DNA from: SAR202 cluster bacterium
GTDB lineage: Bacteria; Chloroflexota; Dehalococcoidia; Lucifugimonadales; VGZY01
Reading direction: 5' to 3'
NCBI GenBank assembly: GCA_016872355.1
Contig: VGZY01000005.1
Location: forward strand, 6,547 to 70,546
Length of the DNA: 64,000 nt
Shown piece after piece: positions 1 through 40,399 of the stretch (positions within the stretch are counted from its first letter, which is position 1; every line of letters starts with the position of its first letter). Position numbers and translations under genes: made by a program. Below the pieces are notes generated by a model that saw only the letters and a program-made list of their open reading frames with translations, ran no database searches and had not been told where the DNA came from.

Positions 1-1314
1 ACGGCGCAGTCCCAGGCGGGGAAGGCCGTGGCGAATGCGGAGACGGCTGTGACGGCGGCCGCGACTGCGCTGGATGCGCGCAAGTCTGATCTGGTCACCC
101 TGATGGCCGGCCCTACGGCTGATGCGGTGCAGGCCAAGAAGAACAGCGTGGAAGTTGCGAAGGCTTCCCTGGCGGACGCGGAAGCTGCGCTAGCTGATCT
201 CAAGGACGGGCCGGACGTTTTCCAACTGGATATCCAGGGTCAGCAGGTTGCGACGGCCCGCGAGACGCTGCGGACGGCGGAGGCGGCGCTGGCGGACCTG
301 CTGGCCGGCACGGCGAACTCGGGCTACGCGGCGCAGGCCAAGCAGGTGACCATTTCGCAGGCCAACCTGGACAAGGCGGTTGCGGACCTTGCGAAGCTGA
401 CTTCAGCCCCGGACGCTAACGAGCTTATCGTCAAGCAGTCCCAGGTGGATATCGCCCGCGAGAACCTCATGGACGCCGAGACCACCCTGGCGAGCTATCA
501 CCAGGTGGACGACCTGCAAATAGCGCTGCGAGAGTCGGACCTGATCGCCGCGAAGGCGGCGCTGGTGACCGCGGAGGCAAACCTTGAGGGCGCCACGCTG
601 AAGGCGCCGTTCAACGGCATCATATCCAGCGTGGCCGTATCGGTTGGCTCCAACGTTAACCAGAATACCGCCGCCATAGAGATTGTGGACCCCAAAGTGG
701 TGGTTCTTTCCGGCGCGGTTGACGAGATAGATGTGCTCTTCATTCGCACGGGCGATGCTGCCGCAGTATCGCTTGAGGCGCTGGGCGGGCAGGTGCTGGA
801 GGGCGAGATCACGTCGATCGCCTCTGCCGCGAGATCTCAGAACGGCGTTGTCACGTACCCGATTACCATCACGGTGCAGCCTCCGCAGAACATGTCGCTG
901 CCGGAAGGTATGACGGCCGTAGCGCAGATTATCGTGCAGGAGCAGCGCAACGGAATCCTGGTCCCTCTGCAGGCCGTGTATGGGACGTACCAGGCGCCGG
1001 TGGTAAAGCTGGTAAGCTCGGCCGGCAAGGTTGAGGAGCGGCCTGTCACGCTAGGCATAAGCGATGACTTCTGGACCGTTGTGACATCCGGCCTGGCCGA
1101 AGGCGATAGGGTGGCGATGACCACGACTGTCGTAACGACATCGCAGGTCACGGCGAACACACTGCAATCGTTCCAGACCCAGCGGAACCTGATTCGTGGC
1201 GGGCAGGCCGGGGTCACCGGCGCGGGCGGGGCCACCGGCGGCCAGTTCAGAGGCCAGTTTGGCGGCACGGGTGGGATAGGCCGCCAGGGCGGCCTTGTGC
1301 CGGGGGGCCGGTAG
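1..1314 (+). CDS. Efflux transporter periplasmic adaptor subunit (HlyD/MacA family), 5' end probably outside the window
   Basis: Frame 1 is open from nt 1 (ORF track starts at GTG 28). Ala/Glu/Leu-rich coiled-coil repeats (LADAEAALADL, LRTAEAALADL) are followed by the beta-barrel motif ATLKAPFNGIISSVAVSVGSNV and a Gly-rich C-terminal tail. The stop lies 2 nt before the ABC ATPase start. Confidence 0.8.
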   Translation, partial: TAQSQAGKAVANAETAVTAAATALDARKSDLVTLMAGPTADAVQAKKNSVEVAKASLADAEAALADLKDGPDVFQLDIQGQQVATARETLRTAEAALADLLAGTANSGYAAQAKQVTISQANLDKAVADLAKLTSAPDANELIVKQSQVDIARENLMDAETTLASYHQVDDLQIALRESDLIAAKAALVTAEANLEGATLKAPFNGIISSVAVSVGSNVNQNTAAIEIVDPKVVVLSGAVDEIDVLFIRTGDAAAVSLEALGGQVLEGEITSIASAARSQNGVVTYPITITVQPPQNMSLPEGMTAVAQIIVQEQRNGILVPLQAVYGTYQAPVVKLVSSAGKVEERPVTLGISDDFWTVVTSGLAEGDRVAMTTTVVTTSQVTANTLQSFQTQRNLIRGGQAGVTGAGGATGGQFRGQFGGTGGIGRQGGLVPGGR

Positions 1315-1316
1315 CC

Positions 1317-2039
1317 GTGGCACACCCGCTCATAGTATTAACGGACGCGACGAAGGTCTACCGTTTGGGTAAGGTGGACGTGCACGCCCTGGACGGCGTG
1401 ACCCTGGCGGTCGAGAAGGGCGAGTTCCTGGCGATCATGGGCGCGTCGGGGTCTGGCAAGTCCACCATGATGAACTTGCTCGGATGCCTGGACGTTCCCA
1501 CTACCGGTGCGTACTTGCTGGACGGCGAGGACGTGAGCCGGATGAGCGACAACAAGCTTGCCGAGGTGCGCAACTGCAAGATCGGATTTGTGTTCCAGCA
1601 GTACAACCTATTGCCGAAGCTTACGGCCGTGGCAAACGTGGAGCTCCCGCTCGTGTACGGCAACGTGGCGGACAGGCGCGCCCGGGCGCTGGAAGCGCTG
1701 GGCAGGGTGGGCCTGGCCAAGAGGGCGGGGCACAAGCCGTCCGAGCTTTCCGGCGGAGAGCAGCAGCGTGTGGGCATCGCGCGGGCGCTCGTGAAGAGCC
1801 CGGCGATTTTGCTGGCCGACGAGCCGACTGGCAACCTGGACTCCCGCTCCAGCGGGGAGATCATGGCTTTCATTCAAAAGTTGAACGACGAGGACGGCAT
1901 CACGATCATCCTGGTCACTCACGAGCCGGACATTGCGGCGCACGCCCGGCGGGTGGTGACGATGCGAGACGGCAAGGTCATTCGCGACCAGCTCCAGGAG
2001 CCGGTGCGCGCGGCCGTCCCGGCCGGGGCGAGGGTTTAG
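1317..2039 (+). CDS. ABC transporter ATP-binding protein (MacB/LolD type)
   Basis: Walker A GASGSGKST, signature LSGGEQQRVGIARAL, Walker B ILLADEPTGNLD, H-loop VTHE. Tightly coupled to the adaptor and permease genes. Confidence 0.95.
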   Translation: MAHPLIVLTDATKVYRLGKVDVHALDGVTLAVEKGEFLAIMGASGSGKSTMMNLLGCLDVPTTGAYLLDGEDVSRMSDNKLAEVRNCKIGFVFQQYNLLPKLTAVANVELPLVYGNVADRRARALEALGRVGLAKRAGHKPSELSGGEQQRVGIARALVKSPAILLADEPTGNLDSRSSGEIMAFIQKLNDEDGITIILVTHEPDIAAHARRVVTMRDGKVIRDQLQEPVRAAVPAGARV

Positions 2040-2045
2040 CGGCAT

Positions 2046-3290
2046 ATGAACAGCATTTCAACCATCATCACGGCGCTCTCCTCGCTGAACTCCAACCGGC
2101 TGCGGGCCGGGCTGGCGCTGCTTGGCATCGTCATCGGCGTCACGGCGGTCATCGCGCTGATGTCCATCGGGCGGGGCGCGCAGAAGCAGGTCACATCGCA
2201 GATAGAGTCGCTCGGCACCAACCTGCTGTTCGTGAACCCGGGCGCTACCACCGTCGGCGGCGTCGCCGGGCTGGCGGGGAGCGCGACGACGCTGACGCTT
2301 GACGACGCCTTCGCCCTCGTGGACCCTCTGTTTGCGCCGTCAGTTATCGCCACGGCGCCGGAGATACGGACTGTTGGGCAGGTGGTGGCGGGGAGGAAGA
2401 ACACCAGGACGCAGGTCGTCGGCGTGACGCCGGACTATGCGCCTGTGCGCGGCATGTCCATCGACTCGGGGGCTTTCATCCAGCCGCAGCATATCTCCAA
2501 CTACTCCGAGGTGACCGTCCTCGGCGCCACTGTATCCGAGACGCTGTTCGGAAACAGGGACCCGGTAGGAGAGTTTGTTCGAATCAACGGCAGGCAGTTC
2601 GTCGTAGTGGGAGTGCTGGAGAAGATGGGGGGCAGCGCGCAGGGCAGCTTCGACAACCAGATCGTCGTGCCGATCACAACGGCGTACTACCGGCTGTCCT
2701 CGCAGAGGACGACGGAGGGGTCGATCAGCGTCCAGCTGATTAACGTCCAGGTAAAAAGCGCCGGTCTTATGGAGCAGGCCGTGACGGAGGTCGCGACTGT
2801 CCTGCGGCTTCGGCACCGCATCACGGGCGAGGACGATTTTACGATAAGCAGCCAGCAGGAGACCATCGAAGCGTTGAACGAGACCACCAGCACGTTCGTT
2901 GTGTTCCTAGGGGCTATCGCGGGCATATCGCTGCTTGTGGGCGGCATCGGCATTATGAACATCATGCTCGTTTCGGTGACGGAGCGGACGCGTGAGATCG
3001 GCATACGCAAGGCTATCGGCGCGAAGCGCAGGGACATCCTGCTGCAGTTCGTGCTGGAGGCGACGCTCCTGAGCCTTGGCGGCGGCCTTGCGGGCGTTGC
3101 GCTCGGGCTCGCGGCGTCTAACTTCATTGACGGAAAGAGCTTCGGGACGCAGTCGTTCACGACAGCGTTCAGCGGGGATATAGCCCTGCTGGCGCTGGTG
3201 GTATCCTCGGGGATCGGGCTCTTTTTCGGAATCTACCCGGCGATGCGGGCGGCGCGCCTGCATCCCATCCAGGCGCTGCGGTACGAGTAA
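2046..3290 (+). CDS. ABC transporter permease, MacB/FtsX family
   Basis: N-terminal TM, about 230-aa extracytoplasmic domain, C-terminal FtsX-type 3-TM bundle. Ends ...YPAMRAARLHPIQALRYE, typical of MacB-type permeases. Confidence 0.9.
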   Translation: MNSISTIITALSSLNSNRLRAGLALLGIVIGVTAVIALMSIGRGAQKQVTSQIESLGTNLLFVNPGATTVGGVAGLAGSATTLTLDDAFALVDPLFAPSVIATAPEIRTVGQVVAGRKNTRTQVVGVTPDYAPVRGMSIDSGAFIQPQHISNYSEVTVLGATVSETLFGNRDPVGEFVRINGRQFVVVGVLEKMGGSAQGSFDNQIVVPITTAYYRLSSQRTTEGSISVQLINVQVKSAGLMEQAVTEVATVLRLRHRITGEDDFTISSQQETIEALNETTSTFVVFLGAIAGISLLVGGIGIMNIMLVSVTERTREIGIRKAIGAKRRDILLQFVLEATLLSLGGGLAGVALGLAASNFIDGKSFGTQSFTTAFSGDIALLALVVSSGIGLFFGIYPAMRAARLHPIQALRYE

Positions 3291-7712: not shown

Positions 7713-9650
7713 ATGGCGCGCGTGGATTTACCTGAAATGCAGACTATTACCGCCACTAAGGTGGGGGCGCCGCCGGCGTGGGCGCTGATGCAGCGGCAGC
7801 TTATGCAGACGATGGAGGCCGGAGCGGAGGTAATGGTCCGCAAGTACCAGGAGCGCGGAGGCGCTCTGTACTACGGCGATTGCGTGGACGACCTGTATGA
7901 GCGCTTCTACAACTGGGGGCTTTTCTACGCCATCGGCGGCAGCGACCGTGTGCTGGAGCTGGGCCTCAGCTCATGGAACGCCATCACGCGCTACAACGAC
8001 GACGGCATCGTCCACCGCAAGAAGCACACGCACTTCAAGCACGGCGACTGGCGCAAGTACAACCAGCAGCTTCACAACGAGTACTTCAACAAGCAGACTC
8101 AGTCCGGTGCCGGCTCGTCCGAGTGGCACCACATGGGCGAGGGGAACATGGCGTTCTACGGGTTCGGCCTTGCCGACCCGACGATCTCGGAGAACGTGCG
8201 CCGCTCCCGCCGCTTCGCTGCCATGTTCATGGGAGAGGACCCGGAGGCGCAGAACTTCGACCCGAAGCGCGGGTTCTTCCTGTCGCCCATTCAGACGAGC
8301 GAGGGGCCATGGACCAACGGCACCGTTGAAAAGGCCATCTGGTGGCTGCAGGGCAAGCCGCAGAATCCCATGGCGCCCAATGGCAGGCGCTCGACGCTCT
8401 ACCCCGTCATTAAAGAGCTCCAGCCCGGCTGGGAGAACGACCCTTCGCGGCGCGACAAGATCGTGGACCTTTTCGAGAAGATCGTCCTGAGGGGCGACAC
8501 GCCCCAGAGCAACGCGGCGACGGCGCTGATCACGAATGCATACCTGTACACGGGCGAGGAAAAGTACCGGAAGTGGGTGCTCGACTATGTTGAAGGGTGG
8601 ATGGACCGCATCAAGCTGAACAACGGCATTGTGCCGGACAACATCGGCTGGGGTGGCAAGATCGGCGAGTTCCGCGAAGGCCAGTGGTGGGGCGGCCTGT
8701 ACGGCTGGAGCTGCCGCGGCATGACGAACATCTTCCACTCGCTCACCATCGGCGCGGAGTGTGCGCTGCTGCTCAGCGGCGACTACGGCTACCTGGACCT
8801 GATCCGCTCGCAGGTGAAGGTGCTGATGGACAACGGCAAGAAGGACGAGCAGGGCAACTTCGTCGCACCCACGATGCACGGGTACCAGGGGTGGTTCAAC
8901 CACGCGCCGCTGCGGACGAAGGAGCCGATCCATATCTGGCACAACTCGATGTCTGACGACGACCGGGCATTCCTGGACTACCTGCGGGACACGAACAAGT
9001 CAGTCGACTGGCTTGAGCAGCCGCAGGTGGGAGAGAAGTCGTTCCAGGACACGGACAAGGCGCGGTTCATGTTCCTGGAGGGGAAGAACCCGGACTGGCC
9101 GGTGAAGGCGTTGTCCGCCGAGCTTGGCGATGTGCTGCGCGTGGTGGACAAACAGCGCGTGGACGAGCGCGAAGCGGACAAGATGATAGAGGACAACATC
9201 GAGCCCAGCAGCCCGATCAATACTCAGGCGCTGATCCAGATGGCCCTGGGCGCGCCGCAGACGGTTTACAACGGAGGCCTGCTCCAGGCGCGCGTGCGCT
9301 ACTTCGACCCCGACCGCGCGCGCCCCGGCCTGCCGCCGGACGTCGCCGCGCTGGTGGATACGGTTACGGGCGATTCGGGCGGCATCCAGCTTGTCAACAC
9401 CAGTTTCACTGAGACGCGCCGGGTGATCGTGCAGGCGGGCGCGTTCGGTGAGCACAGCTTCACGGAGGTCCGCTGCCGTGTACAGGGCGAGGACGGTGAA
9501 CGGTCGGTGCGGGCGGACTCGCAGTACTTTGCCGTGACCCTCCCGCCGTCCACATCCGTCCGCATGCTGGCCGGGCAGAAGCGGTTCGTGAACAAGCCGT
9601 CGTACGCTTTCCCCTGGCACGGCGGCAAGGTGACGGCGCCGTTCCAGTAG
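7713..9650 (+). CDS. Hypothetical protein, 645 aa, Trp/Tyr-rich, cytoplasmic; function unknown
   Basis: Trimmed to ATG 7713 (GAAGAGGGGA upstream). GC3-rich codon usage like its neighbours. No signal peptide or TM, and no family I can name with confidence. Convergent with the sulfatase operon (19-nt gap). Confidence 0.6.
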   Translation: MARVDLPEMQTITATKVGAPPAWALMQRQLMQTMEAGAEVMVRKYQERGGALYYGDCVDDLYERFYNWGLFYAIGGSDRVLELGLSSWNAITRYNDDGIVHRKKHTHFKHGDWRKYNQQLHNEYFNKQTQSGAGSSEWHHMGEGNMAFYGFGLADPTISENVRRSRRFAAMFMGEDPEAQNFDPKRGFFLSPIQTSEGPWTNGTVEKAIWWLQGKPQNPMAPNGRRSTLYPVIKELQPGWENDPSRRDKIVDLFEKIVLRGDTPQSNAATALITNAYLYTGEEKYRKWVLDYVEGWMDRIKLNNGIVPDNIGWGGKIGEFREGQWWGGLYGWSCRGMTNIFHSLTIGAECALLLSGDYGYLDLIRSQVKVLMDNGKKDEQGNFVAPTMHGYQGWFNHAPLRTKEPIHIWHNSMSDDDRAFLDYLRDTNKSVDWLEQPQVGEKSFQDTDKARFMFLEGKNPDWPVKALSAELGDVLRVVDKQRVDEREADKMIEDNIEPSSPINTQALIQMALGAPQTVYNGGLLQARVRYFDPDRARPGLPPDVAALVDTVTGDSGGIQLVNTSFTETRRVIVQAGAFGEHSFTEVRCRVQGEDGERSVRADSQYFAVTLPPSTSVRMLAGQKRFVNKPSYAFPWHGGKVTAPFQ

Positions 9651-9669: not shown

Positions 9670-11769
9670 TCAGAAGCGCCAGCCGCGCTGGCCGCCGAGG
9701 GCGCGCTCGGAGGGACCGCTGTCGTCTGCGGGCTCCGGCTCGCCTACGAGGTTGCCGGACGCGTCCAGGTACCGAAGGTCCTGCCCGTAGAGGCGGCCCT
9801 TGAGCACGTTGACCAGGCTTTCGCGTATGTCTGCGAAGGCGGGGTTGTCCGACATGTCCTGCATTTCGTCGGGGTCGTTGAGCATGTCGAATAGCTGGAA
9901 GCGGTTGCCCGTCGGGTAGTAGATCAGCTTGAACCGGTTGTCTCGAATCATGCGTGAGGCGCGGGTGTCCTCCCAGTGCTCGCCGTACAGGTATTCGTGG
10001 CGCTTCTCGCCCAGCATCGACAGGCCCTCGACGGTCTCAAGCACCGGTATGCCGCACAGCTCCAGCAGCGTCGGCATGATGTCCGCCTGGGCAACGAGAC
10101 GGTTGTCCCGCTTGTTGCGCGGCATGTCCTTCCTGTTCGCGGGCGGCGTGAAAACCATCGGTATCTTCGTCGCCTCTTCGTAGAACAGGTCTTTCGAGTA
10201 TTGCCGGTGGTTGCCGATCATCTCTCCGTGGTCGGCCGTGAACATGATCGCCGTGTTCTCCAGCAGACCTTCCTCCCGCAGCAGCCCCAGCACCAGGCGG
10301 ACCTGGTGGTCCACGTGCGTGCACAGAGCGTAGAACGCCTGCCTCGCCAGCCTGATCGCGGCGTCCGAATACGGGTCCTGTCCGAAGCGACGCGACCGTA
10401 GCGCGTACGGCATTTTGGCAAGGTCGCGCGCCCACTCGCCTACGATGGGCATGTCGATGTCCACGTCTGCATACATGTCCAGGTAGTGCTGTGGCGGGGC
10501 CAGCGGCGGGTGCGGCGCGTTGAACGACATGTACCAGAACGCCGGCTTCGAGGGGTCGCGGCGCGCGATGTAGTTGGACATCTGCTTCGCGGTCCAGTTT
10601 GTCCACGTGTACTGCTCGGGCAGGTGGAAAGGGCGCGCGTTGTAGTCGTTGCTGCCCATCCCGTGGGTAAGCTCCTGCCCGGCGTAGCCGTGCTCGGCCA
10701 GGAAAATCTCGTAGTCGTCCTTCGTCATGCCCAGGTGGTGGCGGCCTTCCTCGTTTAGAAGCGCGTCGTCAAAGCCTATGCGGTCGCGGGGAGGGTAGAC
10801 GTGCAGCTTGCCGACCGCGTAGGCCTGGTAGCCGGCGTTTCGGAACGTCTGCGCCATGGTAGGCAGGCCCTCCGGCATGGGCTCGTATTCTTTGAACACC
10901 CTGTCGCCGTGTGTAGGGGAGAACGCGCCGGTCATGATCTCGCGGCGTGCCGGGATGCAGCTTGGGACTGTGGCGTAGGCGTTGGTGTACGCGATGCCGT
11001 TCTCGATTAGCTGGTCGAGGGTGGGTGTGAGGATGGCGGGGTGCCCGAGCGCGCCTATGAGGCGGCCGTACCAGTGGTCCGTGCAGATAAGCAGTACGTT
11101 GGGTCTATCCATCTTCGCTCCGGTGGCCCTGTAGCGCTTTGGGTCTAGAGGCGTGACCAGGCGCGGTCCGCGGTACTTCGGGTTCAGCAGTCGCCATGCG
11201 ATCAGCACGGCGACGAGGTCGCCCAGGACGAACATCAGCAGCAGCGCCATGAAGATGTTGCCCCAGTTGGACCACTGGACGGTGACATTGTCGGGCGTCC
11301 ACCGTATGACGGAGTGGCTTCCGAGGAACCCGGTCACGTTGATCCGGTAGTCCTCGGTGTATGCCAGCATGCTGTCTGCGCCTGTGGTATCGCGCAGGGA
11401 GAAGTACACCTTGCGCGCCGCAGCGCCCGACTGGCCTGCGGGCAGGTTGCCGCGCGGGACGGTGACGTAGGCGGTGTGGACGGACGTGCCCGGCGGTAGC
11501 GCGGCGAGGAACGCCTCGGGCGTATCGAGAATCGTGCCGCCGACATCCAGAATCGGCTCGCGCCGCGCGCTTATGCGACCGTCGTCAGTGAATGAGAATC
11601 GGTACTCAGAGGGACGGTCCACCGGCGAGACGGTGCGTGTCTCCTCGATCACGGAGGACGTTGGAATCACCTCCATCTTTGTTGATCGCAGGCTTAACAC
11701 GATGAACATGAGCGCGGCCCAGCCCAGGACGGGCAAGGCAATTTTGAGGAGCGTTTCCAGGTTCTTCAT
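9670..11769 (-). CDS. Sulfatase (formylglycine-type) with a 219-aa N-terminal 2-TM extension
   Basis: Sulfatase motifs LICTDHW, SCIPARREIMTG (C-x-P-x-R), FTADHGEMIGNH. The same ORF carries 219 preceding residues with hydrophobic helices at about aa 10-27 and 171-193. Strong SD AAGGAGG lies 7 nt before ATG 11769; an internal ATG at 11112 matches the start of the paralogues. Confidence 0.85.
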   Translation of the reverse strand: MKNLETLLKIALPVLGWAALMFIVLSLRSTKMEVIPTSSVIEETRTVSPVDRPSEYRFSFTDDGRISARREPILDVGGTILDTPEAFLAALPPGTSVHTAYVTVPRGNLPAGQSGAAARKVYFSLRDTTGADSMLAYTEDYRINVTGFLGSHSVIRWTPDNVTVQWSNWGNIFMALLLMFVLGDLVAVLIAWRLLNPKYRGPRLVTPLDPKRYRATGAKMDRPNVLLICTDHWYGRLIGALGHPAILTPTLDQLIENGIAYTNAYATVPSCIPARREIMTGAFSPTHGDRVFKEYEPMPEGLPTMAQTFRNAGYQAYAVGKLHVYPPRDRIGFDDALLNEEGRHHLGMTKDDYEIFLAEHGYAGQELTHGMGSNDYNARPFHLPEQYTWTNWTAKQMSNYIARRDPSKPAFWYMSFNAPHPPLAPPQHYLDMYADVDIDMPIVGEWARDLAKMPYALRSRRFGQDPYSDAAIRLARQAFYALCTHVDHQVRLVLGLLREEGLLENTAIMFTADHGEMIGNHRQYSKDLFYEEATKIPMVFTPPANRKDMPRNKRDNRLVAQADIMPTLLELCGIPVLETVEGLSMLGEKRHEYLYGEHWEDTRASRMIRDNRFKLIYYPTGNRFQLFDMLNDPDEMQDMSDNPAFADIRESLVNVLKGRLYGQDLRYLDASGNLVGEPEPADDSGPSERALGGQRGWRF

Positions 11770-11799
11770 GCGTGTGCCTCCTTCGCGCCTGCAGGAAAG

Positions 11800-13299
11800 C
11801 TAGTACCGGTATCCCCGCTGATTGCCGTAGCTGCCGTCCGGCATAGAGGGCCGGAAGACGATCCTGTCCGGTGTGCCTACCAGCTTACCGTCTTTGACGT
11901 AACGAAGGTCGTCGCCGTACAGGTTTTCGATGAGGAGTTCCGTAAGCTCCTTGCGCGCGGCCGCGTGTGCCGAGTCCTCAGAAATGTCGTGCATCTCGTT
12001 CGGGTCGTTCTGCAGGTCGAACATGTGGAAGCGGTTGCCCACCGGGTAGTAGACCAGCTTGTAGCGCCGGTTTCGGACCATGCGCGTCGCGAAGGCGTTC
12101 TCCCAGTGCTCGCCGTAGATGTAGTCGCGCTTCTTTTCGCCCACAAGGGAGAGGCCTTCCACGGTCGGCGGCGTCGGGATGCCGCACAGGTCCATCAGGG
12201 TAGGAAAGATGTCCGCCTGCACAGCGAGGCGGTCATCGCGGCGGTTCTTGCCGATGTCCTTGCGCGAGGCCTGCGGCATCAGGAGCAAGGGCACCTTGAT
12301 GGAGTTCTCGTACATCACCGCCTTTGCGTACATGCCGTGGTTTCCGAGCATGTCCCCGTGGTCGGAGGTGAACATGATGATCGTGTTGTCCAGGGTGCCC
12401 TTGCCGGGCGCGATGCCGTAAGTGCCGTATGCCTTGGGGTCCTTCCCGGTGGTGTCCAGCTCGCGGATGGTGCCCATGACAAGGCGTATCTGGTGGTCTA
12501 TGTGCGTCGCAAGGGCGTAGAACGCCTGGCGGGCCTTCCTGACGGCGCGATCGGGATAGAGGTCCGGGCTGTGGCGGCGCGCGCGGACGGCGTAAGGCAG
12601 CTTCGCGCGGTCCTTCGCCCATTCGCCCGTGAACGGCTCGTCGATCTCCAGGTCGCGATAGATGTCCATGTACTCCGCCAGTGGGGCCAGCGGAGGGTGC
12701 GGGTGGTTGAACGACATGTACCAGAACGAGGGCTTGCGAGGGTCCCGCCGCGCGATGGCCTTGCTCATCTGGTATGCCGTCCAGTTCGTCGGATGGAACT
12801 TCTCGGGCAGGTGCCAAGGGCGGGTCAGGTAGTCGTTGTGAGACATGCCGTGGCCGAACTCCTGGCCGGAGTAGCCCTCGTCGTGCAGGTATAGCTCGTA
12901 GTCGTCCTTCCGGAGGCCGAACTGGTGGCGGCCTTCCTCGTTCAGCAGGATGTCATCGAAACCTATGCGGTCGCGGGGAGGGTAGACGTGCAGCTTGCCG
13001 ACGGCGAAGGTCTGGTAGCCGTTGGCCCGGAACGTCTGGGCCAGCGTGGGCAGGTGCTGCGGCATCGGCAGCTTTTCATTGAAGACGCGGTCTCCGTGGG
13101 TGCGGGCGTGGGTGCCGGTCATTATCTCGCGCCGGGCCGGGATGCAGGACGGCGTGGGAGCGTAGGCGTTTGTGAACGCCACGCCGCTCATGATGATCTG
13201 GTCCAGTGTGGGCGTCAGCACCGTGGGGTGGCCGAGCGCGCCGATCATCTGGCCGAACCAGTGGTCCACGCTGATGAGGAGTACGTTGGGTCTATCCAT
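11800..13299 (-). CDS. Sulfatase (formylglycine-type), no signal peptide
   Basis: MDRPNVLLISVDHW, SCIPARREIMTG, FTSDHGDMLGNH. Paralogous to the two flanking genes. Confidence 0.9.
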   Translation of the reverse strand: MDRPNVLLISVDHWFGQMIGALGHPTVLTPTLDQIIMSGVAFTNAYAPTPSCIPARREIMTGTHARTHGDRVFNEKLPMPQHLPTLAQTFRANGYQTFAVGKLHVYPPRDRIGFDDILLNEEGRHQFGLRKDDYELYLHDEGYSGQEFGHGMSHNDYLTRPWHLPEKFHPTNWTAYQMSKAIARRDPRKPSFWYMSFNHPHPPLAPLAEYMDIYRDLEIDEPFTGEWAKDRAKLPYAVRARRHSPDLYPDRAVRKARQAFYALATHIDHQIRLVMGTIRELDTTGKDPKAYGTYGIAPGKGTLDNTIIMFTSDHGDMLGNHGMYAKAVMYENSIKVPLLLMPQASRKDIGKNRRDDRLAVQADIFPTLMDLCGIPTPPTVEGLSLVGEKKRDYIYGEHWENAFATRMVRNRRYKLVYYPVGNRFHMFDLQNDPNEMHDISEDSAHAAARKELTELLIENLYGDDLRYVKDGKLVGTPDRIVFRPSMPDGSYGNQRGYRY

Positions 13300-13353
13300 T
13301 GGTCGCTCCAGAGAGGGAGTGATGGGTGAACCGGATTAGATGCCAATCGCGCG

Positions 13354-14796
13354 TCAGAAGCGCCATCCGCGCTGGCCGCCCAATTGGCGGTCGTTGTGGG
13401 AAAGATTCGGCCCTTGCATGTCCGGCAGACCGACGAGCCTGCCGTCCTGGACCCAGTCGGTGTCTCCGCCGTAGAGGAGGGATATGAGCTCCTCTTCCAG
13501 GCGCGCGCGCGTATCAGCGTGGGCAGGATCGTTTGAAAGGTCGCGGGTCTCTTCGCGGTCGAGATGGAGGTCAAAGAGCTGCACGCGGTTGCCGACAGGG
13601 TAGTAGATGAGCTTGTATCGAGCGTCACGGACCATGCGTGTGGACTGGGCGTCCTCGTAGTGCTCGCCGTAAAGGACCTGGCGCTGTCTCTCGCCCAGCA
13701 GGTCCAGCCCCTCCACTGTGCCGGGGACCGGGATGCCGCACATTGCGAGCAGCGTGGGCATGATGTCGGCCTGAAGCGCGAGGCGGTCGTCGCGCTTGCC
13801 TCGCGGCATGTTGTTGCCGGCTGCAGGAGGTGCCAGGACCATCGGGATGCGGGTGGCGCCCTCGTACATAGTGTCCTTCGCCCAGGTACCGTGATCGCCG
13901 AGGACGTCCCCATGGTCCGACGTGAACATGATAGCTGTGTTTTCCAGGAGGCCTTCCTCACGCAACAGGCCTATCACAAGGCGCATCTGGTGGTCGATGT
14001 GGGTGCACAGCGCGTAGAACGCCCGGCGGGCGACGCGAATGGCATCGTCGGAATAGAAGCCGCGAGGGAAGCGTCTCACGCGGATGGCGTAAGGCATCGC
14101 GTCGAAGTCCTCGCACCAGTCGCCGTAGACGGGCATATCGATGTCTACGTCCGCGTACATTTCGAGGTAGTCCTTCGGCGGCGCCAGCGGAGGGTGCGGC
14201 GCATTGAAGGACATGTACCAGAAGGCGGGCTTTGATGGGTCGCGCCTGACGATGTAGCTGGACATCTGCCTTGCGGTCCAGTTCGTCCAACTCAGGCGCT
14301 CCGGCAGGTGGTACGGGCGAACTGTGTAGTCGTTGCTGCCCATCCCGTGAGCCAGCTCGTGTCCTGCGTAACCCTGCTCCGCAAGGAACATCTCATAGTC
14401 GTCTTTCACCATGCCCAGGTGGTGTCGCCCCTCTTCGTTGAGAAGCGCGTCGTCAAAGCCTATGCGGTCGCGGGGAGGGTAGACGTGCAGCTTGCCGACC
14501 GCGTAGGCCTGGTACCCCGCGTCCCGGAAGGTCTGCGCCATGGTGGGCAGCCCCTCCGGCATTGGCTCGTACTCCTTGAATATGCGGTCGCCGTGGGTGC
14601 GGGCGTGGGTGCCGGTCATTATCTCGCGCCGGGCCGGGATGCAGGCGGGGACGGCGGAGTAGGCGTTGGTGTAGGCGATTCCGGTCTCGATAAGCTGGTC
14701 GAGCGTTGGCGTGAGGATAGCAGGGTGGCCGAGCGCCCCTACCAGGCTGCCCGGCCAGTGGTCGACGCTTACGAGGAGTGCGTTGGGTCGTTCCAT
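13354..14796 (-). CDS. Sulfatase (formylglycine-type), no signal peptide
   Basis: Longest ORF (to 15147) trimmed to ATG 14796 (MERPNALLVSVDHW), because the upstream part overlaps the AI-2E gene. ACIPARREIMTG, FTSDHGDVLGDH. Shares a 74-nt identical DNA run with the first sulfatase. Confidence 0.9.
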   Translation of the reverse strand: MERPNALLVSVDHWPGSLVGALGHPAILTPTLDQLIETGIAYTNAYSAVPACIPARREIMTGTHARTHGDRIFKEYEPMPEGLPTMAQTFRDAGYQAYAVGKLHVYPPRDRIGFDDALLNEEGRHHLGMVKDDYEMFLAEQGYAGHELAHGMGSNDYTVRPYHLPERLSWTNWTARQMSSYIVRRDPSKPAFWYMSFNAPHPPLAPPKDYLEMYADVDIDMPVYGDWCEDFDAMPYAIRVRRFPRGFYSDDAIRVARRAFYALCTHIDHQMRLVIGLLREEGLLENTAIMFTSDHGDVLGDHGTWAKDTMYEGATRIPMVLAPPAAGNNMPRGKRDDRLALQADIMPTLLAMCGIPVPGTVEGLDLLGERQRQVLYGEHYEDAQSTRMVRDARYKLIYYPVGNRVQLFDLHLDREETRDLSNDPAHADTRARLEEELISLLYGGDTDWVQDGRLVGLPDMQGPNLSHNDRQLGGQRGWRF

Positions 14797-14798
14797 TG

Positions 14799-15983
14799 CT
14801 ACCTGTTCGGGTTGCCGGCGTCGGCGGGAGTCTCGTTCTTCGAATCGTCCGGGGTCTCGCTGCCGGGCTGGTGCTTCCTGCCCATGGCGTCCGGCTCCAC
14901 ACTGGCCCCGATCTGCGCGGGGGTCTCCTTGTCGCTCCACTCGTTGTAGAGGTATTTGTAGACCTGTTTGGTGACGGCCGCAATGGGGACGGCGGCAATG
15001 ACGCCCCACAGGCCGCCGACCTGCGACGCCACGACGAGGATGACCATAATGGCGGCAGGGTGAATGTTCACCGCGTGGCCCTGTATCCTGGGCACCAGCA
15101 GGGTATTTTCCAACACCTGGACGCCTGCGTACAGGAGTACCACCCATACAACGTCCTCAGGAGATGTGGCGAGAGTAACCAGAATGCCCGGGATTGCGCC
15201 GAGGACGGGGCCCACCACCGGGATGAGCTCCGTCAGGCCGGCGATGATGCCAAGCAGGACCGCGTATGGAACGCCGATGGCGGACAGGCCGATGAAGACC
15301 ATACCGCCAACGACGATCACGAGCACGAACTGGGTCCGGACGTACCTGCCGAAGACGGTGTTGACTATGGCCAGGATGTTCCTTGCGTGGGGCTGAATGC
15401 GCGCGGGGAACAGGTCGTAGAAGGACGCAGCGGCCTTCTCTTGGTCTTTGAGAATGTAAAAGAGGAAGAAGGGCACTATCAGGAGGCCGAATACGATGGT
15501 GAACACGGAGGATACAGCCTCGACGGTGCGCATCACCACGGAGCGTGCGGCGGAAATGGTGACTTCGCCCACTTCATTCAGCCCGTTCTGTATCTGGACG
15601 CGAATCTCTTCGGGGATCCTGTTTACGTATTCCTGGTTCCAGCTCTCAATTGCGATCCGTGCGCGGGTGAATAGCTCCGGCACCAGGTCGATAAGCTGCG
15701 ATGCCTGACTCACCGCGGGAGGGACTATGAGGAGGACCGCCAGGGCGACGACGCAGAGGGCGGCGAGGTAGATGACCGCGATGGCGAGAATGCGGCTCAG
15801 CGCGGGGCGGCGGCGCCGCCATGGCATTATCCCTTCAAGCCTCGTGACGATTGGAGTGAGGATGAAGGCCAGGACGACGGAGAGGATGAAGGGGAAAAGC
15901 GCGTCCCTTGCCACGTACAGCAGATAGGCAATGGCGGCGACGGCAACGGCCACGAGTATCTGGCGCTTTCTGCTGTCGTGCAT
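14799..15983 (-). CDS. AI-2E family transporter (PerM/UPF0118-type membrane protein)
   Basis: Trimmed to ATG 15983 (MHDSRKRQILV...); the longer ORF runs through a 19-bp hairpin. Multiple TM helices and motifs FFLFYILKD, ELIPVVGPVLGAIP. The stop lies 2 nt before the sulfatase start. Confidence 0.85.
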   Translation of the reverse strand: MHDSRKRQILVAVAVAAIAYLLYVARDALFPFILSVVLAFILTPIVTRLEGIMPWRRRRPALSRILAIAVIYLAALCVVALAVLLIVPPAVSQASQLIDLVPELFTRARIAIESWNQEYVNRIPEEIRVQIQNGLNEVGEVTISAARSVVMRTVEAVSSVFTIVFGLLIVPFFLFYILKDQEKAAASFYDLFPARIQPHARNILAIVNTVFGRYVRTQFVLVIVVGGMVFIGLSAIGVPYAVLLGIIAGLTELIPVVGPVLGAIPGILVTLATSPEDVVWVVLLYAGVQVLENTLLVPRIQGHAVNIHPAAIMVILVVASQVGGLWGVIAAVPIAAVTKQVYKYLYNEWSDKETPAQIGASVEPDAMGRKHQPGSETPDDSKNETPADAGNPNR

Positions 15984-16113
15984 CCTGAGGGCCTCCGCTC
16001 TTGAGGCGTATCCATCGCTGGTGGAGACAACTATACTACAGCAAGCTCGCCCGGCTGGTAGAGATGTCCGGTGGTTAGGACGGCGGCCGCGACGCCACGC
16101 TCTATCGGCAATC

Positions 16114-16159
16114 TGCTGATGGGAAGTCCGGCCTAACGAAGCCGGACTTCCCATCAGCA
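16114..16159 (-). terminator. Perfect 19-bp hairpin without U-tract (putative terminator or RNA element)
   Basis: TGCTGATGGGAAGTCCGGC - CTAACGAA - GCCGGACTTCCCATCAGCA. Lies 8 nt downstream of the stop of the 124-aa ORF on the minus strand. Confidence 0.4.
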
Positions 16160-16166
16160 TGCGCCT

Positions 16167-16541
16167 TCAGCCGACGGCTTGCGGGGCCGCTTTCTTGCGC
16201 AGCCACTTGAATGCCAGTCCTATCCTCTTGCGGTAGACGATGAGGTTGGCAGCCGTGAGAATGAAGTAGATTACCGTCACTGCCATATGCGCGCCGGGAA
16301 TCAGGAGCTGGATAAGGAAGAGTCCCATGAGTAGTAGCGCGCCCACCAGGGACATCCTCAAATCAAGAAGCAGCGAAACGGCGAAAAGCGATTGCGCCGC
16401 CGTCAGGAGGACTTCCTCTTGCTGGCGGGAGTCAAGCGGCAGCGGGTCCAGCTCGTCCGGGTGCGCGCCGAACCCTGCGCGGCGCATCAGGTGCGCGTAG
16501 AGGGCACGGGTGGAGATGTCCTTCTTGGTTGAGGTTGTCAA
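16167..16541 (-). CDS. Small membrane protein, possibly a chimeric gene remnant
   Basis: N-terminus ALYAHLMRRAGFGAHPDELD resembles DUF1800 N-termini. The C-terminal 85 aa form 2-3 hydrophobic helices. Coding status uncertain. Confidence 0.4.
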   Translation of the reverse strand: MTTSTKKDISTRALYAHLMRRAGFGAHPDELDPLPLDSRQQEEVLLTAAQSLFAVSLLLDLRMSLVGALLLMGLFLIQLLIPGAHMAVTVIYFILTAANLIVYRKRIGLAFKWLRKKAAPQAVG

Positions 16542-16553
16542 TTGTCTCTCCCG

Positions 16554-16973
16554 TTAAGCAGCTTCGGAGGACTTGCGACGTGACTTGGTAGTGGCGGACT
16601 TGCTCTTATGGGCCTTTGCCTTGGGTGGCTGAGCACTGTTGGTACCAGGCTTGCGGGCTTGGTCGCGCTCTCTCCAGTAAGCAATCTCCTCTTCCGCCGT
16701 CTTGTTCCCCATCTGCTGCGACAGCGCCGATTGGGCCTCGTGCATCATCTCCACCGCGTCGAATTTTTTTGGAGGAGCGATTCCTGCGGTGAGTAGGACA
16801 AGGTCAGCCTTTGTAATAGCCTTGTCTGTCTGATCTTGCCACGCAACCAACCGTTTCCGCCTTTCCTCCCAGAAGACCACTTCTTCCGCAGTGGTCATGC
16901 CGGTCGTAAGGCTGTTAATAGCCTGCGCGCTCCGGTCGATCATATCTCTCACTTTAATTTTCTTCGTTGTCAT
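16554..16973 (-). CDS. Hypothetical protein with internal duplication and a basic tail (candidate partner of the upstream PIN protein)
   Basis: SD GAGGTG 7 nt before ATG 16973. Overlaps the PIN gene end by 20 nt. Duplicated segment TTAEEVVFWEERRKRL / KTAEEEIAYWRERDQAR. Lys/Ser/Ala-rich C-terminal tail. Confidence 0.5.
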   Translation of the reverse strand: MTTKKIKVRDMIDRSAQAINSLTTGMTTAEEVVFWEERRKRLVAWQDQTDKAITKADLVLLTAGIAPPKKFDAVEMMHEAQSALSQQMGNKTAEEEIAYWRERDQARKPGTNSAQPPKAKAHKSKSATTKSRRKSSEAA

Positions 16974-17424
16974 AATGGATCACCTCACTCGGTGAGAAGA
17001 TGCCCAAAGGCGGCAATCCATACACCGTATTGATCGCATTGTAAACTGGGATCTTTTGAAAATGGACTATGTGTTTGAAATTCCAGCTTACAACCATCCT
17101 GCAGTCTGAGGTTGAAGCCACGGCGATATGAAGTGCGTCCTTGTGCGATTTCGAGCCAACGACCTGAGCGGTTAAGTAGGCATCCCGTAACTGTATTGCG
17201 GTATCAGATATCGGCACGACTTCAATAATCCCCGCCAAACCTGAGTATACCTTTCGAACGGCTGGTGGGGCCAGAGCAAGCTCTTCCTCGACTATTGAGG
17301 AAGTGATCAAGGCAAAGCGGCCTTCCAAAACTTGCTCAAAGAAAGCTTTGCTCGCTACCGTGAACTCCGGGTCGAACAGCCCACCGAAGACGGAGGTGTC
17401 ACAATAAACCCTAATGGGCGCCAT
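16954..17424 (-). CDS. PIN-domain protein (VapC-like ribonuclease)
   Basis: Conserved acidic positions in VYCDTSVFGG, IVEEEL, DALHIAVAS, VSWNFKHI. ATG 17424 lies 2 nt after the dipeptidase stop (alternative GTG 17442). About 40-47% GC in counted lines versus about 63% in neighbours. Confidence 0.8.
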   Translation of the reverse strand: MAPIRVYCDTSVFGGLFDPEFTVASKAFFEQVLEGRFALITSSIVEEELALAPPAVRKVYSGLAGIIEVVPISDTAIQLRDAYLTAQVVGSKSHKDALHIAVASTSDCRMVVSWNFKHIVHFQKIPVYNAINTVYGLPPLGIFSPSEVIHYDNEEN

Positions 17425-17426
17425 TC

Positions 17427-18572
17427 CTACTTCCCCAGCCACTTCTCGAAGAAGCGCTGCCAGTTTCTGTACATGACGTTCTCAATGTCCGCGCGCTTGT
17501 AGCCGCGCTTTTCCAGAATGCCCGCGAGCTTCTGGTAGTCGGCCACCGTGTCCACGTCGTGCGGCGCGCCGTCCGACCCGCCCTGTCCGTCGGTGTCGCC
17601 GCCGATCGCCGCATGCTTGGAGCTGCCAGCCAGCTGGCACACGTAGTCGACGTGGTCGGCCACGTCCTCAATCGTTATGAGCTCGCTGGGGTACACCGCA
17701 CGCCTGGCAGGGATGCTCGTGGAGGCCCAATTGAGCTGGTAGTGCTTGTTGAGCATGTAGGTGTCCATCGACGAGCCGATGACGCCTCCGCGCCGGATTA
17801 CCTCTTTGAGGATATCGTCCGGCTGCTGGCGCTCCCCGGGGACGATGGCGCGGCAGTTCTGGTGGCTGGCGAGCGCGGGGCCGTCGAACTTCTCGAACTC
17901 CTGGCGGACCGAGGCGTCCGAGGTGTGTGTGACGTCCAGGATCATGCCCAGCTTTTCCATGTTCTTCAGAAGAGGCTTCGCGTCCGGGGTCAGGCCGCCA
18001 TCCGTGCCGGTGCCCGTGCCGTGCGAGTACTTGCTGACGCCATAGTGGGAGAGGCTGATCACGCGGAGGCCGTCTGCATGCCACTCGTGCACCTGGTCCG
18101 GCCAGGAGATGGCGTCCGCGCCCTCCATGCCGATGACGAAGCCTACCGGCAGCTTCTCGTAGTCAGTGGCGGACTCCCAAATCTTCATGTGGTCGGCGAA
18201 CTGCTTGGAGGTTGCGAGTATCTTCGCCTCGCCCTGCTTTTCGAGGATGCGGTAGTAGTACAGCTGCCCCATGGCCCCGGCGTAAGCGGACTCGTACGAG
18301 CGGAACTCGCCGTGAGGGTGGCCGGGCTTCAGCACGCACGCCACCGTCTTGACCAGCGCCGCGGCGATGCGCCCTTTGCGCATCTCAGGGAGCGTCGCCA
18401 TCGTCCCGACATCCGCCAGCCCGGACCGGCTCGTCGTCAGCGCCGGTATCCTTGGTGCGCGCCGCACCTCGTCGATGGGCTTGCGCAGATCGCGCGCCAT
18501 ATCCAGCGCGCCTATGGCCATCGGGTAGTCGCCGTCGATGATAAGCATGGAGGACTGCTGTTTGGCGGGCAT
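17427..18572 (-). CDS. Membrane dipeptidase family protein (peptidase M19)
   Basis: Motifs IIDGD, SHYGVSKYSHGTG, LDVTHTSD, AIGGDTDG. SD GAAGGAG 5 nt before the ATG, immediately after the vapC stop. Confidence 0.85.
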   Translation of the reverse strand: MPAKQQSSMLIIDGDYPMAIGALDMARDLRKPIDEVRRAPRIPALTTSRSGLADVGTMATLPEMRKGRIAAALVKTVACVLKPGHPHGEFRSYESAYAGAMGQLYYYRILEKQGEAKILATSKQFADHMKIWESATDYEKLPVGFVIGMEGADAISWPDQVHEWHADGLRVISLSHYGVSKYSHGTGTGTDGGLTPDAKPLLKNMEKLGMILDVTHTSDASVRQEFEKFDGPALASHQNCRAIVPGERQQPDDILKEVIRRGGVIGSSMDTYMLNKHYQLNWASTSIPARRAVYPSELITIEDVADHVDYVCQLAGSSKHAAIGGDTDGQGGSDGAPHDVDTVADYQKLAGILEKRGYKRADIENVMYRNWQRFFEKWLGK

Positions 18573-18587
18573 TTGGGCTCCTTCAAC

Positions 18588-19025
18588 CTAGGTCGGTGGA
18601 TTCTGTAGCTCTGGGCGAATATTGTGAAGGCGCACCGGCACGGCCGCGCTGATCCTGTTGAATTCGATATTGTCTGTGAAGACGGCCAATTCCTTGCGCT
18701 CGGCTACCGCGCAGATAAGGATATTCGTTGGGTCCACTCGGATGTTTGTCGTTCGGCACATCAAAGAGTACATGGCCGCCCCCTCGTGGTCCTCAACGAC
18801 GGTGTCCGTGTGCGGCATATCTCTGAACATGAGGCGCAGGCGCTCAAAGGCTTCCGGGTTTGGAATCCTCGACAAGACCTGCTGTCGCACCGGGCCGAGC
18901 AACACGGCGCGATTCTCGAATATGAGCTCCATTAGCTCGGCGCGAAGGCCCTCCTGGTAGGGGTTGAGATTCGCTCTCCTGGCCAGGGAAAGCGACCAAA
19001 TTGAGGCGTCAACGAGAACGTTCAC
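18588..19025 (-). CDS. vapC: Type II toxin VapC (PIN domain)
   Basis: MNVLVDASIW..., ...LAVFTDNIEF PIN signature. 4-nt overlap with the upstream antitoxin gene. Confidence 0.85.
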   Translation of the reverse strand: MNVLVDASIWSLSLARRANLNPYQEGLRAELMELIFENRAVLLGPVRQQVLSRIPNPEAFERLRLMFRDMPHTDTVVEDHEGAAMYSLMCRTTNIRVDPTNILICAVAERKELAVFTDNIEFNRISAAVPVRLHNIRPELQNPPT

Positions 19026-19225
19026 GCCTTCCCCTTGCCGCGGGACTCGTAATCGAACGGAGGGTCGAAGTCAATGGTGCCGAAGAGCTTGATAATTTCA
19101 AGCTGCTTCCTTCGGCGCACATACTCGTCCAGTGCGGCGTTCACGGCTTCACGCTTTGTCTTGTGCCCACCGATACGACGGGCCTCTTCAATCAGTTGAT
19201 CGTCGATATTCAGGTTCGTTGGCAT
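19022..19225 (-). CDS. vapB: Type II antitoxin VapB
   Basis: 67 aa. MPTNLNIDDQLIEEARRIGGHKTKREAVNAALDEY matches the VapB (DUF2191-like) antitoxin N-terminus. Confidence 0.85.
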   Translation of the reverse strand: MPTNLNIDDQLIEEARRIGGHKTKREAVNAALDEYVRRRKQLEIIKLFGTIDFDPPFDYESRGKGKA

Positions 19226-19281
19226 ATAGCTTCACCTCGATTACACACTATGCAACACGCTTGTCTGTGTGTATGTCTGCA

Positions 19282-19878
19282 TCATCGCAATTGCAACGCG
19301 AACTCGTCCATCGAAAACTTGCCCGTGGGCTCGCTCTTGAATCCGACAAACGAGAACCCGAAGCTCTCGCACTTCGCAAGGGTGGACTCGAGGGGAGTAG
19401 CGCGGGCCGGATCGCGGGCCCAGCTATTGTGCCACTTTGCCTTGTCCGGGCTGAGCGCGAAGACGTTTGGGTTGTCCGCCCACCTGCCGTGAGAAATGGA
19501 CAAGGGGTGGCTCGTGTAGTGCCAGCGGGTGCCACTCACGTGCGCCCAGAAGTAGCATTTCGCGTTGTCCAGGGCCAGCCCGTCCCCGCGCAGGTATACG
19601 GAGACCACCGCGTTACGCAGGTCCAGGTTGTCGTGGCCCAGCCAGCTGGAGTAATTGAGCAGCGCCAGGATCGAGACGGGCTCCTCCGGCGAGTCCGTGC
19701 TCCAGCGCGACTCGTCCGTCCAGATATACCCGCCGCCGTTCACGCCGCCGGCCTTCTGGTGAGTGGCAAGAATGAAGATATTCTCGCGCTTGGCAACCAT
19801 GCTCCAGTGGTAGTCGTACGTATGCCACGCCTCCGCGCTCTTGTCGAAGGTGTGGCTGATAAGTTTGGGTGTGGTCAT
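19282..19878 (-). CDS. Hypothetical protein, 198 aa, Trp/His-rich
   Basis: Longest ORF trimmed to ATG 19878 (GGAGG 5 nt upstream); the N-terminal extension runs into the palindrome at 19984-20044. No recognisable family. Confidence 0.55.
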   Translation of the reverse strand: MTTPKLISHTFDKSAEAWHTYDYHWSMVAKRENIFILATHQKAGGVNGGGYIWTDESRWSTDSPEEPVSILALLNYSSWLGHDNLDLRNAVVSVYLRGDGLALDNAKCYFWAHVSGTRWHYTSHPLSISHGRWADNPNVFALSPDKAKWHNSWARDPARATPLESTLAKCESFGFSFVGFKSEPTGKFSMDEFALQLR

Positions 19879-35845: not shown

Positions 35846-36970
35846 ATGGCTCTAACAGCAGATGTGGTGATCGCAGGGGCCGGGGTGGTCGGGTGCGCGG
35901 CGGCCTACTTCCTGGCGAAGCAGGGCGCCGCGGTAACGGTGGTGGAGGGGCGTGGAATAGCCACCGGGCCGTCAGGATACGCAGTAGGGTCGCTCAACCC
36001 ATTCACGGGCGACGGCATACCGGGTCCGCTGGAGGCGCTGGCAAGGGCGTCTTTCCAGATGCACACGGCCGCCTGGGCGGAGCTTATCGCGGAGTCCGGC
36101 GTGGACTTCAAACCGGTGATGATGCCGCACCTGGAGCTTGCGCTGGACGAGAGCTACGTGCCGGTGCTCCGGGCGCTGCAGGGCCGTCTGGACGGCGACG
36201 GCATGTTCAGGACGCGATGGCTGGAGGCAGAGGAGGTGACTCTGCTGGACGACAGGCTGACGCCGGAGTCGCGCGGCGCGCTGCTGGTGGAGAGCATCGG
36301 CATCCTGGACAGCTATGACTACAACGTGGCGCTGGCGAAGGGGGCCGAGAGACTGGGTGCGAGACTGGTCAAGGCGGAGGCCATTGGGCTTGAGCGACAG
36401 GGTGGACGGGTAACTGCGGTGTCCACAACAGCCGGCCGGATAGATGCGGGGGCGTTCCTGGCGGCTATGGGGACGGAGTCGCGGACGGCGGGAGAGTGGC
36501 TCGGCGTACCGCTGCCCATCGTGTCGCTGAAAGGACAGATCCTGCATCTCAAGGCACCCGGCCGGCGGCTGGGCTACTCCCTGCACGGCGAGATGTCGCT
36601 TGTTCACAAGGCAGACGGCCTCGTCTGGGTGGGTGGGACGGAGGAGCACGGCAAATCGGACATTGCGACCGACCTGGACGGACGGTCGGCGCTGGCGGCG
36701 CAGGTGCGCCGAATGGCGCCCGGACTGGAAATTACAGTAGCTTCGCATACCGCGTGCCTCCGGCCGATGTCGCCTGACCGGCTGCCGGTGATAGGCCCGG
36801 CGCCCAGCTGGGAGAACGCGTACGTCGCTACTGGGGCGGGCAGGAAGGGCGTTCTCCTGGCCCCGGCCATCGGCCGCGCCGTGGCGGATATGGTCACTAA
36901 AGGGAGAACAGACTTGCCTGTGAGCGGGATGCTATTCGTACCTCAGCGCTTCCGCGGGGTATGTCTTTGA
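35846..36970 (+). CDS. FAD-dependent oxidoreductase (DAO / glycine-D-amino-acid oxidase family)
   Basis: DVVIAGAGVVGCAAAYFLAKQG dinucleotide-binding motif. 374 aa. The 3' end overlaps the convergent permease gene by 39 nt. Confidence 0.85.
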   Translation: MALTADVVIAGAGVVGCAAAYFLAKQGAAVTVVEGRGIATGPSGYAVGSLNPFTGDGIPGPLEALARASFQMHTAAWAELIAESGVDFKPVMMPHLELALDESYVPVLRALQGRLDGDGMFRTRWLEAEEVTLLDDRLTPESRGALLVESIGILDSYDYNVALAKGAERLGARLVKAEAIGLERQGGRVTAVSTTAGRIDAGAFLAAMGTESRTAGEWLGVPLPIVSLKGQILHLKAPGRRLGYSLHGEMSLVHKADGLVWVGGTEEHGKSDIATDLDGRSALAAQVRRMAPGLEITVASHTACLRPMSPDRLPVIGPAPSWENAYVATGAGRKGVLLAPAIGRAVADMVTKGRTDLPVSGMLFVPQRFRGVCL

Positions 36971-40396: not shown

Positions 40397-40399
40397 TGC

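Follow-up and report, generated by a model that had tools for sequence, protein, structure and literature searches.

The 64,000-nucleotide (nt) stretch of contig VGZY01000005.1 that we analyzed (the window), from a SAR202 cluster bacterium (Dehalococcoidia), contains an open reading frame (ORF; 9670..11769, minus strand) of 699 amino acids (aa) in which a module with two transmembrane (TM) segments precedes an arylsulfatase. On balance, we favor the view that this ORF is a one-off, recent and probably near-neutral read-through fusion of a rare gene for a two-TM (2-TM) membrane protein with an ordinary cytoplasmic arylsulfatase gene. A preliminary description of this DNA, made from its letters alone, had seen in the same ORF the layout of a sensor-coupled enzyme. 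The comparison that decides between one designed protein and two neighboring genes is with L001, a 1278-nt ENA contig that carries P0001, the closest relative of the N-terminal module. The features of the ORF are as follows.

11777..11783, minus strand: Shine-Dalgarno (SD) sequence AAGGAGG of the 2-TM gene, 7 nt before ATG 11769, read from the sequence
11134..11769, minus strand: coding region of the 2-TM membrane protein, aa 1-212, based on GC content at third codon positions (GC3), homologues and the ratio of nonsynonymous to synonymous change (dN/dS); matches the stand-alone gene of the relatives
11686..11751, minus strand: TM1, about aa 7-28 (hydropathy peak; helix 2-26 in the AlphaFold2 (AF2) model)
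11266..11685, minus strand: predicted extracytoplasmic beta-rich domain, about aa 29-168 (AF2 model)
11185..11265, minus strand: TM2, about aa 169-195 (hydropathy peak; AF2 helix 169-195)
11134..11196, minus strand: predicted basic cytoplasmic tail WRLLNPKYRGPRLVTPLDPKR, aa 192-212 (L001 alignment and charge)
11113..11133, minus strand: junction, with TAC (Tyr213) for the L001 stop TAA and then 18 nt against 19 nt; reads YRATGAK and contains the sulfatase SD sequence GGAG
9670..11112, minus strand: Cys-type arylsulfatase gene proper, 480 aa from its own ATG 11112

Gene order in L001 is that of the window: sulfatase 2 (C-terminus, 92% identical) comes first, then the 2-TM gene, then the sulfatase (N-terminus, 88%). 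In L001, the 2-TM gene ends ...LDPKR-TAA and is followed by a 19-nt spacer containing ACCGGAG, after which the sulfatase starts ATGGATAGACCCAAC. The window instead reads ...LDPKR-TAC-AGG-GCC-ACC-GGA-GCG-AAG-ATG-GAT-AGA-CCC. Since TAC stands in place of TAA and the spacer is one base shorter, the 2-TM gene and the sulfatase are in frame, and the comparison at the DNA level thus identifies the "N-terminal module" as a neighboring gene read into the sulfatase. The covalent link hinges on this one substitution and one spacer base, in a single assembly. The fused protein is MBM3933093.1, annotated as a 699-aa DUF4976 protein of a SAR202 metagenome-assembled genome (MAG); it forms a singleton cluster and is encoded on one 83.9-kb contig. 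A stand-alone protein with the exact 480-aa sequence was absent from the collection searched.

We next considered the two halves separately. The extension is truly coding and not a chance open frame, as indicated by its GC3 signature, its homologues and the purifying selection acting on it. GC content by codon position was 0.60/0.48/0.83 in the extension and 0.63/0.41/0.87 in the catalytic part, with similar values in neighboring genes, while a spurious upstream stretch of another sulfatase gene in the window (paralogue 3), which served as a negative control, gave 0.86/0.64/0.41. Compared with L001, dN/dS was 0.19 over the extension and 0.28 in the outside domain. The AAGGAGG site aligns with GGAG, 6 nt and TTG in L001. 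Kyte-Doolittle hydropathy in 19-residue windows revealed peaks at aa 7-25 (2.29) and aa 172-190 (2.82) and no other in the 699 aa, and the stretch after TM2 has 7 Lys or Arg against 1 Asp or Glu. Much of the preliminary description is borne out by these data: the 219 residues that the ORF has beyond its two paralogues (699 aa against 499 and 480 aa), the translation of this extension behind its SD sequence (GC3, homologues, dN/dS), the two membrane helices, which enclose a domain of about 140 aa without a Pfam or NCBIfam match, and the Lys/Arg-rich tail after TM2 that would place the sulfatase inside, a basic tail being present in all six members of the 2-TM family described below and a signal peptide in none of the sulfatase subfamily.

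The preliminary description had also suggested a homologue search with the extension alone, and this uncovered five stand-alone relatives. We queried 5.8 billion clusters by word-indexed search, first with the extension and then with a six-sequence profile of the 2-TM family, and searched 1.84 billion representatives exhaustively with HMMER. Across these databases the extension has only five true relatives (P0001-P0005), the closest found in the cluster search (E 5.8e-54) and four more by HMMER, with E-values against the family profile from 6.6e-112 to 8.5e-11. All five are stand-alone 2-TM proteins, and none is fused to anything. They are 172-219 aa long as called and 206-219 aa at full length, once their starts are corrected from the DNA. 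P0001 is about 50-51% identical to the window protein. In the shared plan, TM1 follows a short N-terminus that is mostly basic, the next 140 aa or so form a domain with the conserved motifs YxE(E/D)YP and W(S/T/N)NxG(N/D), and TM2 and a basic C-terminal tail with 4-7 Lys or Arg complete the protein; aa 1-212 of the window ORF have every one of these features by alignment, profile, hydropathy and charge. In L001, the call for the 2-TM gene (168..821) begins at an internal ATG (189 aa); the mechanical ORF opens at TTG 168. Alignment of the contig to the window DNA suggests TTG 192 as the real start; this codon follows GGAG and 6 nt and would give a 209-aa protein with the N-terminus MSTSQILPR. 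Two weaker matches of the META-domain and Ig-repeat kind, P0006 and P0007, are repeat proteins with motif-level similarity and were rejected as homologues; P0006 resembles a META-domain repeat protein (E about 5e-6) with short repeated motifs. No further loci emerged when GTDB genomes and JGI metagenomes were scanned with peptide patterns and with a DNA pattern for the conserved tail.

The gene neighborhoods of these relatives set the direction of the change. The distant relatives lie beside genes for an FAA hydrolase and a DUF8034 protein (L004-L008), a transposase-like gene (L003), a DUF1579 gene (L009) or a small unknown gene (L002). No sulfatase adjoins the outgroups P0002-P0005, and the module is found beside a sulfatase only in the lineage of the window and L001. 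Because these outgroups are stand-alone and without a sulfatase next to them, parsimony argues that the fusion is derived. It is very improbable that the fusion was instead ancestral to the window and L001, with L001 split by a nonsense change of TAC to TAA followed by a neutral 1-nt insertion. A single such change would indeed split the gene, and the internal SD sequence and ATG would rescue the sulfatase, but this history requires two events, fusion and fission, where one would do; the outgroups all stand alone; and the SD sequence and start region are common to an unfused paralogue, which makes independent initiation the older state.

As for the second half, the catalytic part is, from its sequence, an ordinary cytoplasmic Cys-type arylsulfatase and one of three tandem paralogues, with predicted activity. 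Pfam Sulfatase (PF00884) matches aa 223-574 of the 699-aa protein (E 1.4e-45; 156.3 bits against a cutoff of 25; profile 1-301 of 301) and SGSH_C (PF16347) matches aa 519-656. The formylglycine motif C-x-P-x-R is present as CIPAR (10945..10959, minus strand) within SCIPARRE at aa 270-277. The motif occurs in all three sulfatases of the window and in 110 of the 119 best matches (56-71% identity) to the full 699-aa query. None of the NCBIfam equivalog cutoffs for arylsulfatase, choline-sulfatase or PehA was reached by the catalytic part; its score with the arylsulfatase model PRK13759 was 385.9 bits, under the cutoff of 481. The 119 homologues are 459-526 aa long and cover 61-69% of the query. 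None of them has an N-terminal extension; among the homologues listed, 219 additional residues at the N-terminus occur in the 699-aa copy and in no other. Those homologue N-termini that were read start a few residues before the first sulfatase strand, (R/K)PNVLL, and none has a signal peptide; 67 of the 119 have a strict match to this pattern no more than 13 residues from the start, including all of the first 12 listed.

The sulfatase also retains the means to be translated on its own. Its SD sequence GGAG (11121..11118), 5 nt and ATG 11112 are intact, and unfused paralogue 2 has a matching start region, GGAGCGACCAATGGATAGACCC, sharing GGAGCGA..ATGGATAGACCC with the start of the fused copy.

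Together, these features suggest the following sequence of events. Ancestrally, two adjacent, co-transcribed genes would have encoded a membrane protein of about 210 aa and, downstream, the arylsulfatase. In the window lineage the stop TAA would have become the Tyr codon TAC and the 19-nt spacer would have shortened to 18 nt. Ribosomes starting at ATG 11769 would then cross seven linker codons into the sulfatase and make a 78-kDa product. Its first 195 residues would form a helical hairpin in the membrane, with the beta-rich domain exposed on the outside, and a basic linker of about 25 aa would hold the sulfatase at the cytoplasmic side. Translation probably still begins internally as well, at the retained GGAG-ATG, yielding the 480-aa enzyme in free form. 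A topology with both termini inside, the domain outside and the sulfatase in the cytoplasm is plausible from hydropathy and charge: by the positive-inside rule the tail, and hence the sulfatase, is placed in the cytoplasm, and the lack of signal peptides in the sulfatase subfamily agrees with the charge bias in predicting an inside catalytic domain. The mostly basic N-termini of the six family members likewise point to an inside N-terminus. The Cys-type sulfatase motif can mature in the cytoplasm. Because the number of helices is even and the C-terminus of the hairpin would be inside, the sulfatase would keep its native compartment, so that the fusion could be tolerated.

The outside domain itself gave few clues to a function. 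Searches of Pfam, NCBIfam and PDB sequences with the extension, singly and with all six family members, returned no match; a cofilin match at E 0.09 was discarded as noise. Structure prediction followed by a fold search had been proposed in the preliminary description as well. An AF2 model built from the six sequences had a mean confidence score (pLDDT) of 78.9, with about 10 strands and 1-2 helices, and Foldseek searches of this model against PDB and BFVD found nothing at E<0.001, so that no ligand-binding fold was recognized. An earlier two-sequence model (pLDDT 59.7) and its fold search were dismissed as meaningless.

The tail is a different matter. Identity between the window and L001 is 88-92% for the flanking sulfatases, about 50% for the 2-TM protein and 45% for its outside domain. 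The 21-aa tail WRLLNPKYRGPRLVTPLDPKR, by contrast with the rest of the protein (32-63%), is 100% identical, although the proportion of synonymous differences (pS) is 0.69, with about 12 synonymous codon changes; its TPLD is kept in P0002 too. The tail therefore looks like a strongly selected short motif, predicted to face the cytoplasm.

Upstream of the fused gene lies a same-strand string of genes headed by a transporter, and a scan of this string for promoters and terminators found nothing above chance.

11800..13299, minus strand: sulfatase paralogue 2, 499 aa, 30 nt upstream of the 2-TM gene and 60% identical to the fused copy
13354..14796, minus strand: sulfatase paralogue 3, 480 aa from ATG 14796, 71% identical to the fused copy
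14799..15983, minus strand: AI-2E family transporter (PF01594, 1.9e-63), 394 aa on an identical JGI contig, at the head of the string

The transporter gene stops 2 nt before ATG 14796 of paralogue 3. The mechanical ORF of paralogue 3 runs 117 codons further upstream (597 aa; 14797..15147) with a GC3 of 0.41. This upstream extension is plainly spurious: it overlaps the AI-2E transporter gene in another frame, and the true start is ATG 14796. In a genome as GC-rich as this one, it serves well as a negative control for extended ORFs. The paralogous sulfatases and the enolase-superfamily genes of the window fit descriptions of SAR202 groups I/II, in which an expansion of sulfatase paralogues has been described (PMC6946804, PMC10444878).

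On the opposite strand, a convergent gene (7716..9650) encodes a 644-aa protein without a local Pfam or PDB sequence match and ends 19 nt from the sulfatase stop. The protein is 52% identical to the DUF8034 protein (PF26099, a precomputed label) encoded directly downstream of P0004 in L004-L008. The DUF8034-like family is multi-copy in Dehalococcoidia, Latescibacterota, Poribacteria and Gemmatimonadota MAGs. A general linkage of the 2-TM module to DUF8034-like genes was rejected, as none of 66 DUF8034 loci in GTDB genomes holds a module homologue; the proximity of the two in the window and in L004 may be chance or the remnant of an old linkage. Farther away, a very large FtsX-type permease gene (36932..41164, minus strand; 1154 aa, with FtsX domains at the C-terminal end) adjoins an ABC ATPase gene, and a second MacB-type set (HlyD, ABC, MacB_PCD/FtsX) occupies 28..3290 on the plus strand.

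Several observations weigh against a recent, near-neutral fusion. The junction is known from one assembly. L076, an independent JGI contig (metagenome 3300020193) and the sole other contig of the population, is 100% identical to window positions 19299..11230 (8070 nt) and stops 118 nt short of it; its end at 11230 falls inside TM2 of the 2-TM gene, and the break may reflect strain variation or a graph branch induced by the paralogues. Loss of the stop and a change in spacer length were both needed for an in-frame fusion, which may be read as selection for the fused form. The invariant tail hints at a function, possibly with the neighboring enzymes. Finally, hydropathy and charge are the sole basis of the topology.

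In light of the first of these points, it is possible, though we think it rather unlikely, that the fusion is an artefact of assembly or sequencing. The true genome would then have one more base in the 21-nt linker, the 2-TM gene would stop at a TAG within ATGGATAG, overlapping the sulfatase start by 8 nt, and two separate proteins would be made; overlapping, coupled gene starts are a common arrangement. One inserted base anywhere in 11113..11130 does yield ...GAT GGA TAG, and the same out-of-frame TAG follows the spacer in L001. The exact 699-aa protein was found on no other contig, and all relatives are unfused. On the other hand, the linker has no long homopolymer and is flanked by clean in-frame coding sequence on both sides, the identity to an independent assembly over 8070 nt points to good base accuracy, and the change of TAA to TAC is a real difference that an indel error leaves unexplained.

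We consider it improbable that the fusion instead reflects functional coupling, in which the 2-TM protein would serve the cytoplasmic sulfatases, and perhaps also the AI-2E-type transporter, as a membrane partner, sensor or anchor, and a "Rosetta stone" fusion would fix an existing interaction. In favor of coupling, the gene sits between two sulfatases in both the window and L001, with gaps of 30 nt and 19 nt; the tail is fully conserved despite saturated synonymous change; the TM-domain-TM-output layout is like that of sensor proteins; and two changes were needed to bring the genes into frame. However, in four of the five lineages the relative has no adjoining sulfatase, the ectodomain evolves fast relative to the flanking sulfatases, no ligand-binding fold was recognized, none of the 119 best sulfatase homologues carries the module, and only the 25-aa basic linker, with no signaling or transducing element, connects TM2 to the enzyme. 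A more specific form of this idea, similarly improbable, is that the fusion is real and marks a true partnership: the 2-TM protein would dock sulfatases through WRLLNPKYRGPRLVTPLDPKR at the inner face of the membrane beside the importer, imported sulfated substrates would be desulfated on entry, and the outer domain might gate or sense the substrate. The invariant tail is the main support for this minority view that the membrane protein docks something. Regulation of the sulfatase by the outer domain is quite unlikely, because TM2 is joined to the enzyme by nothing that resembles a transducing element and the relatives do not conserve the link. The sensor-coupled enzyme of the preliminary description is not supported: the module is independent in 5 of 5 relatives, 0 of 119 sulfatases are extended, and the sulfatase keeps its own SD sequence and ATG. 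For the fusion itself we infer a recent and nearly neutral origin instead of a regulatory design.

Comparison with known systems is in keeping with a read-through fusion. LtaS, EptA/MCR-1 and YejM/PbgA have five TM helices and an extracytoplasmic catalytic domain. They resemble the window protein in joining a domain of the sulfatase/alkaline-phosphatase fold to an N-terminal membrane module, but the window protein has two TM segments and an enzyme predicted to lie inside, and the membrane parts are non-homologous. The preliminary description had set the ORF apart from this class, and we agree: the whole 699 aa have two hydrophobic segments, and the NCBIfam models for LtaS, EptA and YejM scored 24.8, 22.8 and 18.4 bits against cutoffs of 825, 970 and 500. 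Sensors of the TM1-periplasmic domain-TM2-output type, such as histidine kinases, chemoreceptors and some cyclases, share the gross layout, but the window protein is without HAMP, PAS, DHp or any other transducing element and without a recognized sensor fold, and none of its five relatives is fused. Read-through "Rosetta stone" fusions are alike in having same-strand neighbors, a short spacer, a stop changed to a sense codon, the spacer as linker and a retained downstream start; what differs from the usual case is that a membrane protein is joined to a soluble enzyme, with an even number of TM segments keeping the compartment. Lastly, hundreds of cytoplasmic Cys-type arylsulfatases of about 480 aa (PF00884 and PF16347, PRK13759-like, COG3119) share 56-71% identity with the catalytic part (aa 220-699), which matches them in CIPAR, the lack of a signal peptide and the tandem paralogues and differs from them in the 219 additional N-terminal residues.

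These results carry a caution, in that a striking "new domain architecture" in a MAG protein resolves into two ordinary neighboring genes by way of a single close relative. A real fusion would amount to a natural experiment in which a cytoplasmic sulfatase tolerates membrane tethering, and it could hint at an interaction of the two proteins. The 2-TM family, with six members among about 15 billion proteins, is very rare and uncharacterized, with a predicted outside beta-rich domain and an invariant tail. Sulfatase expansions in SAR202 are thought to be important for the turnover of sulfated organic matter, and that picture is unchanged by the present result. If the membrane-dock reading were true, the 2-TM protein would represent a new way to organize cytoplasmic sulfatases in SAR202.

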